Part shown: piece after piece, positions 7,640 through 61,563 of the stretch
How the letters are laid out: each line of letters starts with the position of its first letter
How positions within the stretch are numbered: the stretch's first letter is position 1
DNA from: Escherichia coli
GTDB lineage: Bacteria; Pseudomonadota; Gammaproteobacteria; Enterobacterales; Enterobacteriaceae
Direction: 5' to 3' (one strand)
Length of the DNA stretch: 64,000 nucleotides
Assembly (NCBI RefSeq): GCF_045037415.1
Contig: NZ_CP173438.1
Notes under the pieces: generated by a model
Told to the model about the DNA's origin: nothing
Seen by the model: only the letters and a program-made list of their open reading frames with translations
Databases searched by the model: none
Translations under genes and position numbers: made by a program

Positions 7640-7714
7640 TGGGGTATCGCCAAGCGGTAAGGCACCGGATTCTGATTCCGGCATTCCGAGGTTCGAATCC
7701 TCGTACCCCAGCCA
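7640..7714 (+). tRNA. glnV: tRNA-Gln (CUG)
   Basis: tggggtatcgccaagcggtaaggcaccggattCTGattccggcattccgaggttcgaatcctcgtaccccagcca. Confidence 0.95.
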
Positions 7715-7751
7715 ATTTATTCAAGACGCTTACCTTGTAAGTGCACCCAGT

Positions 7752-12472: not shown

Positions 12473-13352
12473 ATGAGCGACGACAATTCACACAGTAGTG
12501 ACACGATAAGCAACAAGAAGGGATTTTTCTCCCTGTTACTCAGCCAACTTTTCCACGGTGAACCGAAAAACCGTGACGAACTGCTGGCGCTGATCCGTGA
12601 TTCCGGGCAGAACGACCTTATCGACGAAGATACGCGCGATATGCTCGAAGGGGTGATGGACATCGCAGACCAACGCGTTCGCGACATCATGATCCCCCGC
12701 TCCCAGATGATTACCCTGAAACGCAACCAGACGCTGGACGAATGCCTTGATGTCATCATCGAGTCCGCCCACTCACGTTTCCCGGTGATTAGCGAAGACA
12801 AAGATCACATTGAAGGGATTCTGATGGCGAAAGACTTGCTGCCGTTTATGCGCAGCGATGCTGAAGCCTTCAGCATGGACAAAGTGTTACGTCAGGCGGT
12901 TGTCGTTCCTGAAAGTAAGCGCGTAGACCGGATGCTGAAAGAGTTTCGCTCTCAGCGTTACCACATGGCGATCGTCATTGACGAATTCGGTGGGGTTTCC
13001 GGTTCTCGTGACCATTGAAGACATCCTGGAACTGATTGTTGGTGAGATTGAAGACGAGTATGACGAAGAAGATGATATCGACTTCCGTCAGCTGAGTCGT
13101 CATACCTGGACCGTGCGCGCACTGGCTTCTATTGAAGACTTCAACGAAGCGTTCGGCACCCACTTTAGCGATGAAGAGGTTGACACTATCGGTGGTCTGG
13201 TGATGCAGGCATTTGGGCATCTTCCGGCGCGTGGCGAAACCATCGACATCGACGGTTACCAGTTCAAAGTGGCGATGGCCGACAGTCGGCGTATTATTCA
13301 GGTTCATGTCAAAATCCCGGATGACTCACCCCAGCCGAAGCTGGATGAATAA
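12473..13352 (+). pseudogene. corC: corC/ybeX (CBS-domain Mg/Co efflux-associated protein) disrupted by a +1 frameshift near 13003
   Basis: Two ORFs (12473-13018, 181 aa; 12978-13352, 124 aa) together cover the 292-aa CorC sequence; the span is 880 nt (not a multiple of 3); frame changes after ...DEFGGVSG at ggTTctc. Confidence 0.75.
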
Positions 13353-23456: not shown

Positions 23457-24907
23457 TCAACTAAACAACATCGCGATTTTGCCGAGAGCATAACCTATCA
23501 CCAGCACCGTTAAACTGATTTTGATAATGCTGGTAATGCTCTGTGGTTTTTCATCCTCATCATTTATTTCTTCATGGTTTTCAGGTGTTGGCTCATCGAC
23601 ATCTTCATCCTCCGGCTCGAGCTTCACTTTCGTCAACAGCATTCGGGTGATAATGGTTCTAATGGATGTGCCTCTCCGCGTTCCAGCCGCGCGTCCAGAC
23701 GGGCCAGCATCTCTTGTTTCGGAAACGCTTCAAGTACTACCTGTTCCGCTACCCGATACAAATCCAGTAACGGTGAATCTTGCTCTGTCTCGCTACCGAC
23801 TCTCGATTTCCACCACGCCCATGCTTTGCGTTTGAAGAATAACGACTCAATAAACGATTGACCTAACGGCGATAATTTTCCGCTATGTAAAATCTCCGCC
23901 CATAACAGCCGCGTCCGGGCGCTCTCACCAGGAACATATTTCAACGGCTTACCTTGCGCATCTACCATGCTCCGCGCTTCGATAACCATCACTAATAACG
24001 CGAAATAATCCGGGCAATGACGCTTGCTCCACTGCAACAACAAATTATCGGCTTGTGTAGATGGGTAACTTTCCCGGTACGCGCAGAGATCGGCAAGCAG
24101 GCTTTCCCCCTCGCCGCAGTACAACCGTTGTGCGCACTGGTAATAACGGGCATCTTCGCTTTCTGGTTCTTCCGCTTGCCACTGTTGAGCGACAGGAATG
24201 AGTTCCGCCATACCTGTTTGCACCGAGCTGTACCAGCGCAACAGTTTGCGATGCAACTTCGCATCATCAGGAATGAACCACGGACCTTCCATCGCCAAAA
24301 ACGCAGTGACATAGTCAGGATGGTAACGGCAGCAACGTTCCAGCGAGAAGTAATACTCAACCGTCTGGTTCTGCAACGCAACGGGATATTCCAGAAGGCT
24401 AAGGAAATCGAAACAATCACCAGCCTGAATGGCCTCAAGAAAAGCCTCCCTTTCTTCCTCATCTATTCCTTCGCAGTCATTAAACGAATGCCAGTTCAAA
24501 CGCTCTGCCAGCAAAGAAGCACAATTTAATGAAAGATATCGCGCTTCTATAGCGATTGCACACAGCGGCCAGCGTAATTGATCGACATCCTCCATGTTCC
24601 AGGTATTTAATTGCTGAATAAATTTCTGCCAGGCGGAGGGCTGAAAACGATCATTTTCTGAATCCAGTAATGCCCTGAATACACGTAGTATTTCATGCTC
24701 AGTGGCAGCATCTTTTTCTTCATCATCTGCTTCCTCGACAGGATTTACCGCCAGTCGCAGCGCCTCTTCATAGGCCTGGCGTAATGCTTTAAACCCTTGT
24801 GGATCGGTTTCGGGATGACATAACGGTAAGCGAGCAAGATAAGCCTGGCGGATAATGTCTATTTGCGTCGTGCTTTCAATTTCGAGGATTTGCCAACATG
24901 TTTTCAT
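23457..24907 (-). pseudogene. djlC: J-domain co-chaperone DjlC (YbeV) with an apparent -1 frameshift near 23633-23642
   Basis: ORF 23633-24907 (424 aa, J-domain-like N-terminus) and ORF 23457-23642 (61 aa, acidic linker plus C-terminal TM anchor) overlap by 10 nt in different frames; combined span 1451 nt is not a multiple of 3 (expected 1452 for the 483-aa protein). Confidence 0.65.
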
Positions 24908-53880: not shown

Positions 53881-55285
<1,405 letters not shown>

Positions 55286-58359: not shown

Positions 58360-58714
58360 TCCCATCTGCACAAGCGATAACTCGCTTTGCCCAGAGGATG
58401 CACTCGCATCCTCTTTCCGCTCAAATATCAACCAGATTTATCATTTTGCTCTTAAGCGCAGCATTCTAATCTGAACTGGTTATTCATCTGCGGAACCTCA
58501 TATGAGCGAAGCTCTCGGTATCACTGCATTTTATATATTCATAGCAGCAATTATTGTTGCTGCAGTGCTATACCTTGAACAACGCTGGTAGCGCCTGGTT
58601 TTATTTATTTTCCAGCTCAATAGCAAATTCAGATCAAATCAGCCTCGCAAATTATAGATTCATAACCAATAATGTGCTGTTATGTATACATGCAAAAACA
58701 AGGAGAGAATGCTT

Positions 58715-60999: not shown

Positions 61000-61563
61000 T
61001 TAGATTTTACCAACCAGGTCCAGAGACGGAGCCAGAGTTGCTTCACCTTCTTTCCATTTAGCCGGGCAAACTTCACCTGGGTGAGAAGCTACGTACTGTG
61101 CTGCTTTGATTTTACGCAGCAGGTCAGACGCGTCACGGCCAATGCCTTCAGCGGTAACTTCGATTGCCTGGATGATACCCTGCGGGTCAACAACGAAGGT
61201 CGCACGGTCAGCCAGACCTTCATCTTCACGCATGTTGTCGAAGTTACGGGTCAGGGCGCCAGTCGGGTCGCCGATCATCGCATATTTGATTTTAGCGATG
61301 GTTTCAGAGCTGCTGTGCCATGCTTTGTGGGTGAAGTGAGTATCGGTAGATACTGCGTATACGTCTACGCCCAGTTTCTGCAGTTCTTCGTAATGGTCAG
61401 CAACGTCACCCAGTTCGGTCGGGCATACGAAAGTAAAGTCAGCCGGGTAGAAGAAGAAGACGCTCCAGCGGCCTTCGGTATCTTTTTCGGTGATTTCGAT
61501 GAATTCGCCGTTTTTGAATGCCTGGTTTTTAAAAGGTTTAATTTTGGTGTTAATCAAGGACAT
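61000..61563 (-). CDS. ahpC: alkyl hydroperoxide reductase subunit C (peroxiredoxin)
   Basis: 187-aa 2-Cys peroxiredoxin (FTFVCPTE). Confidence 0.97.

Follow-up and report, generated by a model that had tools for sequence, protein, structure and literature searches.

The surplus T that splits corC (ybeX) into two reading frames in the analyzed window, a 64,000-nt stretch of an Escherichia coli genome, is very probably (at a probability of about 0.93, as judged from sequence comparisons) a nanopore consensus error caused by DNA methylation and not a mutation in the bacterium. The split is real in the sequence as given; its presence in the organism is a separate question. The surplus base coincides with a methylated motif, the methylase genes for this motif are encoded in the closest database record, assemblies of one clone disagree with each other at the site, and the differences between these assemblies are enriched in the motif.

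In the window, corC spans 880 nt vs. the normal 879 nt, with one surplus T at position 13003/13004. The first reading frame is followed as ...DEFGGVSG up to position 13003, and the other frame continues from position 13005 as [24 protein letters not shown]. The 5' fragment (Table 1) corresponds to CorC residues 1-177, to which the residues SRDH are appended before a premature TGA codon at positions 13016-13018. These observations bear out the preliminary description of this DNA, in which a single-base insertion was reported to divide corC into ORFs of 181 and 124 aa and the change of frame was placed at ggTTctc around positions 13003-13004, directly after DEFGGVSG. Deletion of one T from the window copy restored an 879-nt ORF with a 292-aa product, which matched the CorC equivalog profile NF011675 of NCBIfam over profile positions 1-292 with a score of 645.4 bits (the curated cut-off is 379 bits); the unrepaired fragments matched profile positions 1-177 and 176-292, respectively. 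The gene is located between ybeY and lnt in the RefSeq annotations of the closest record (E. coli Esc28), of the near-identical ST131-like genome SK1144, and of the assembly of E1, the parental strain of Esc28. The gene order miaB-ybeZ-ybeY-corC-lnt, which the preliminary description had also given, is annotated in Esc28. Compared with CorC/YbeX of E. coli, a CNNM-family Mg2+/Co2+ transport protein, the window copy is thus alike in its full-length profile match after removal of the T and in its usual gene cluster, but differs in being written in two frames.

Table 1. Split corC gene, shortened djlC gene, and Eco31I sites (GGTCTC) in the window.
Feature	Position	Strand	Description
corC 5' fragment	12473..13018	+	181-aa ORF, ATG start, ends ...[12 protein letters not shown] (ORF list, translation)
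corC 3' part, shifted frame	13005..13352	+	CorC residues 178-292 (LVTIED...KLDE*); mechanically called ORF 12978..13352, 124 aa, TTG start
Corrupted Eco31I site in corC	13001..13007	+	GGTTCTC for GGTCTC (alignments to SK1144, E1 assembly, and Esc28)
djlC	23633..24907	-	Shortened to 424 aa by a lost C; normally 483 aa, 1452-nt gene
Second corrupted Eco31I site, in djlC	23655..23660	+	GGTTCT for GGTCTCT, C4 gone after 23657
Intact Eco31I site	42876..42881	+	GGTCTC (motif scan)
Intact Eco31I site	54000..54005	+	GGTCTC (motif scan)

The distribution of the insertion among complete E. coli genomes was analyzed by a megablast search with the 880-nt corC region against 5,426 such genomes, in 5,424 of which corC was found. 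Among the megablast matches listed, all but one are 879 nt long, and a 61-nt probe centred on the insertion had a single perfect match among the 5,424 corC-bearing complete genomes, namely NZ_OZ369436.1 from E. coli Esc28, where PGAP flags corC as a pseudogene. Over the 64 kb, the window and Esc28 differ at three places: a 1-bp deletion at 23657 and SNPs at 58592 and 61130. Esc28 is one of 31 'escaper' clones that were obtained after delivery of a Cas9-carrying conjugative plasmid into clinical strains; most clones of the Esc series, including Esc28, derive from strain E1, and their genomes were built from nanopore reads by several long-read assemblers, the outputs of which were merged with Autocycler (PMC12774652). 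That paper contains no mention of polishing, Medaka, or Dorado (PMC12774652). The E1 assembly is that of CNR20191027, a urine isolate from Belgium, and 28 Esc chromosomes carry the dcm|ISEcp1 junction of E1. Of these 28 chromosomes, 25 have a length of ~5.1565 Mb, with extremes of 5,156,475 and 5,156,542 bp, a spread of lengths that clones one laboratory step apart should not show. We infer that the assembly containing the window was made in the same way as that of Esc28.

The insertion corrupts a recognition site of the Eco31I type (GGTCTC/GAGACC), in which the surplus T (13003 or 13004) lies between T3, which is paired with the m6A of GAGACC, and C4, which is the m5C. Alignment of the window with the E1 assembly revealed two indels only, the T gained in corC and the C lost in djlC, and both are located at the T3|C4 step of GGTCTC. 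The alignment with SK1144 likewise contains two indels only, apart from a rearranged tRNA array. A motif scan of the homologous 64 kb of SK1144 identified four copies of GGTCTC and no copies of GAGACC; thus, two of these four hexamers carry an indel in the window, in both cases between T3 and C4. The E1 assembly, Esc28, Esc29, Esc26, Esc2, and Esc10 all have an unaltered site in djlC, and the C lost from this site in the window belongs to the same class of artefact as the T gained in corC. Comparison of the bases flanking the corrupted and the intact GGTCTC sites revealed no rule that separates them. The sites also differ in how often they are affected: most E1-lineage assemblies contain a miscall at the corC site, as opposed to only a few per cent to ~10% for other sites.

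Several other features were observed in the same comparisons. At approximately 7700-7750 of the window, the tRNA Gln/Met array upstream of ubiF differs from that of SK1144 and the alignment breaks; Esc28 and SK1144 are also annotated with different orders of the tRNA-Gln and tRNA-Met genes. In the region of approximately 38000-41500, Esc28, the E1 assembly, and SK1144 have identical pseudogene annotations for ybeQ and ybeF; these are features common to the lineage and, in contrast to the corC split, not assembly-specific errors. The motif itself is scarce, with four ancestral sites in the 64 kb, all on the plus strand, vs. ~31 expected from base composition, and with eight sites vs. ~62 expected in 130 kb of EC958; the overall depletion of GGTCTC/GAGACC is 4- to 8-fold.

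In the ST131 strain EC958, the methyltransferase M1.EcoMI produces GAG-m6A-CC, and M2.EcoMI is predicted to produce GGT-m5C-TC (PMC4659465); 100% of the GAGACC sites were found to be modified in this strain (Forde et al., 2015, PMC4659465). When the methylated pairs of EC958 are placed on the T3|C4 position of the insertion, the indels are therefore flanked by exactly the two modified base pairs. The Esc28 genome encodes an adenine methyltransferase of the Alw26I/Eco31I/Esp3I family, WP_001295726.1 (1185619-1187241), which adjoins the m5C methylase WP_001295727.1, the accession of which is identical to that in EC958. Both methylase genes are intact, and an Eco31I-family endonuclease gene is annotated beside mcrBC. 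Thus, the modified bases of the Eco31I motif coincide with the corC error, and the methylases for this motif are encoded in the closest record. The Eco31I genes are absent from the position that mcrBC/hsd occupy in K-12 (1.225-1.275 Mb in Esc28; the start and 5.03-5.075 Mb in EC958) and are instead found ~70 kb upstream of it, beside a chromosomal blaCTX-M-15 insertion. In Esc28, the region 1188424-1198173, which is outside the window, contains an ISEcp1-blaCTX-M-15 / IS26 / aac(6')-Ib-cr / blaOXA-1 unit between the M2.Eco31I and endonuclease genes. The system of the E1 lineage resembles the Eco31I type IIS system of EC958 (M1.EcoMI/M2.EcoMI) in its recognition site, the accession of M2, and the neighbouring mcrBC; however, it differs from the latter by the ISEcp1-blaCTX-M-15/IS26 insertion between M2 and the endonuclease gene, and by the annotated length of the endonuclease gene (1671 vs. 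1740 nt).

Sibling assemblies of the E1 lineage were compared with the E1 assembly over 50 kb including corC (Table 2). In the E1 assembly, corC is an intact 879-nt gene (WP_001278605.1), djlC is intact, and ahpC is normal. Among approximately 30 E1-lineage assemblies, the corC site occurs in four states, GGTCTC, GGTTTC, GGTTCC, and GGTTCTC. A probe with the GGTTCC form had perfect matches in 19 records, comprising 15 Esc assemblies, among them Esc30 from a different strain, E3, and four unrelated records (A1.S1.126, 446, 463, and UID2309220027). An additional 16 records had one mismatch and no gap relative to the same probe, including 12 Esc assemblies (one of which is Esc31, also from E3) and four unrelated records; both one-mismatch records that were fetched, Esc20 and strain 447, contain GGTTTC. 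Among the unrelated strains, A1.S1.126, with GGTTCC, is from Poland, and 446, 463, and 447 are from Taiwan. A separate ranking of siblings by bit score with a 15.5-kb query was uninformative, the list being swamped by hundreds of identical ST131 genomes.

Table 2. Differences from the E1 assembly in the window and in Esc assemblies, over 50 kb including corC.
Assembly	corC site	Other differences
Window	+T	Lost C in djlC; C/T at 58592
Esc28	+T (GGTTCTC)	G-to-A in ahpC
Esc26, Esc29	GGTTCC	G-to-A in ahpC
Esc2	GGTTCC	None
Esc10	Wild type	G-to-A in ahpC

The ahpC gene provides a second marker for the descent of these assemblies. Position 61130 is G in the window, the E1 assembly, Esc2, and SK1144, and A in Esc28, Esc29, Esc26, and Esc10; the A form corresponds to a new protein accession, WP_452124670.1. 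The wild-type corC site occurs with G in the E1 assembly and with A in Esc10, the GGTTCC form occurs with G in Esc2 and with A in Esc26 and Esc29, and the insertion occurs with A in Esc28 and with G in the window. All pairings of corC and ahpC states are therefore present, and single events in a clonal, non-recombining lineage cannot explain them. As a test of the inheritance of the lesion, the corC states are inconsistent with clonal descent, counter to what a true frameshift pseudogene would show. With respect to ahpC itself, a scan for known ST131 motifs at 61130 gave no match, and the flip at this position may reflect either a further error-prone site or polymorphism within the E1 stock. 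At position 58592, C is found in the window and SK1144, and T in the E1 assembly and Esc28; a Dcm site (CCTGG at 58594) follows 2 nt downstream of this position, and the difference may be either a methylation-linked call or a real SNP that marks the window strain as a non-E1 derivative.

The same data bear on the possibility that a real single-base insertion inactivated corC in the clone, making it a true pseudogene, perhaps with a polar effect on lnt. In favor of this reading, the insertion is shared by the window and Esc28, the assemblies of which are not identical, and PGAP calls the Esc28 copy a pseudogene; corC is non-essential in E. coli. However, the insertion is missing from the E1 assembly and from all other Esc assemblies, siblings give three other readings of the same six bases, the site is a methylated motif in which the second indel of the window is also found, and the clade defined by the insertion conflicts with the clade defined by ahpC, in which the window and Esc28 differ. 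A real insertion is thus quite improbable. The preliminary description had considered a real lesion, possibly polar on lnt, along with a sequencing error. The former is made improbable by the methylated motif, the disagreement between siblings, and the intact 879-nt corC of the parental E1 assembly. The latter is supported by the same motif and the intact E1 copy, together with the four readings of the site within one clonal lineage. Since the corC error is not taken to be a real lesion, the question of polarity on lnt falls away.

The association with the motif extends beyond corC. A further 50-kb block, containing eight Eco31I sites, was compared among Esc28, Esc29, Esc26, and Esc2. No difference was found between Esc28 and Esc29, and single-base changes relative to Esc28 were found in Esc26 (GAGACC to GAAACC) and in Esc2 (GGTCTC to GGTTTC, in sgcC); these two motif changes were the only differences in the block. 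In a comparison of Esc28 with EC958 over 127 kb, the only difference was one base at the edge of an IS element, and 8 out of 8 GGTCTC sites were intact in Esc28, in keeping with most copies of the motif being called correctly. When the differences between siblings were pooled, 8 out of 13 were located in bases of the motif, vs. a share of 0.064% for these bases in the total sequence compared (binomial P = 3.6e-23). Every motif variant converts GGTC to GGTT, and the length-changing forms, i.e., the T gained in corC and the C lost in djlC, are merely those that resemble frameshifts.

Alternatively, the Eco31I sites could be truly hypermutable in this lineage, for example by deamination of m5C in GGT-m5C-TC that is left unrepaired by Vsr, with heterogeneous cultures as a result. 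Vsr very-short-patch repair is specific for Dcm CCWGG sites, several of the variants have T in place of C at the m5C position, and the 4- to 8-fold rarity of GGTCTC relative to base composition would fit a long-term loss of sites. In its broadest version, this explanation treats the Eco31I sites as real m5C-driven hot spots, with cultures that would be mosaic at GGTCTC sites, including those of corC and djlC, and with the motif depletion of the ST131 core genome as their outcome. Both versions are highly improbable. They would require about a tenth or more of the site observations to change within one laboratory experiment, a frequency that exceeds the known rates of deamination by many orders of magnitude; moreover, the gained T, the lost C, and the CT-to-TC forms are not deamination products, hundreds of other ST131 complete genomes have kept GGTCTC at this site, and restriction avoidance explains the depletion of the motif equally well. 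Real mutation is excluded in practice, as it would have to affect about a tenth of the sites or more in one experiment, in several ways, and repeatedly in unrelated strains. Finally, expression of corC via a programmed +1 ribosomal frameshift, suggested by the two overlapping ORFs and by nothing more, is scarcely credible: 5,423 of 5,424 complete genomes have corC in one frame and the two-frame form is not conserved, the overlap GGT TCT CGT GAC CAT TGA contains no prfB-like slippery codon with stop (CUU-UGA), and a direct reading of positions 12990-13020 revealed no upstream Shine-Dalgarno-like stimulator, in agreement with the preliminary description, which had noticed no obvious signal of this kind.

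The preferred explanation, a methylation-linked consensus error, could operate as follows. The window comes from a strain of E. coli ST131, in which the two methylases of the Eco31I restriction-modification system would modify adjacent base pairs in each GGTCTC site (GGT-m5C-TC / GAG-m6A-CC), and the modified T3/C4 step would produce an ambiguous pore signal that the basecaller tends to read toward GGTT...; this signal-level step is inferred. Resolution of the consensus would then decide whether the output is the correct GGTCTC, or GGTTTC, GGTTCC, or GGTTCTC. Of these corC outputs, only GGTTCTC would alter the length of the gene and thus appear as a frameshift. Methylation-induced errors in nanopore-only bacterial genomes have been described as differing between assemblies of one sample (Lohde et al., 2024, PMC11610573). 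Our case resembles the published ones (Chiou et al., 2023, PMC10687267; Lohde et al., 2024, PMC11610573) in that the motifs are strain-specific, not every copy of the motif is affected, the errors vary between assemblies, and false allelic differences arise between clonal isolates. In contrast to the published cases, which mainly involve purine-purine and pyrimidine-pyrimidine substitutions in other motifs (PMC11610573, PMC10687267), the motif here is Eco31I GGTCTC, it combines m5C and m6A on adjacent base pairs, and the outcomes include an indel that gives the false appearance of a pseudogene. The literature that we searched contains no report of GGTCTC/GAGACC as a nanopore error motif, the only hits being methylation-motif callers and unrelated papers.

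Thus, corC is almost certainly intact in this organism, and lnt is unaffected. In this ST131 lineage, most assemblies built from long reads alone contain a miscall at the Eco31I site of corC, as do unrelated assemblies produced in other laboratories, and in the case of Esc28 such miscalls have placed a false pseudogene in RefSeq. Two CorC alleles in RefSeq, WP_338756890.1 (GGTTCC, L178S) and WP_135141898.1 (GGTTTC, L178F), are probably nothing more than miscalls of this site; these codon forms, or forms one base away from them, are found in 27 Esc assemblies and eight unrelated records. Sites of this kind inflate pseudogene counts and generate false SNP and cgMLST differences between clonal isolates. 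In the unpolished nanopore assemblies of ST131 examined here, and probably in those of other Eco31I carriers, differences in GGTCTC/GAGACC should therefore be masked or checked before they are interpreted.
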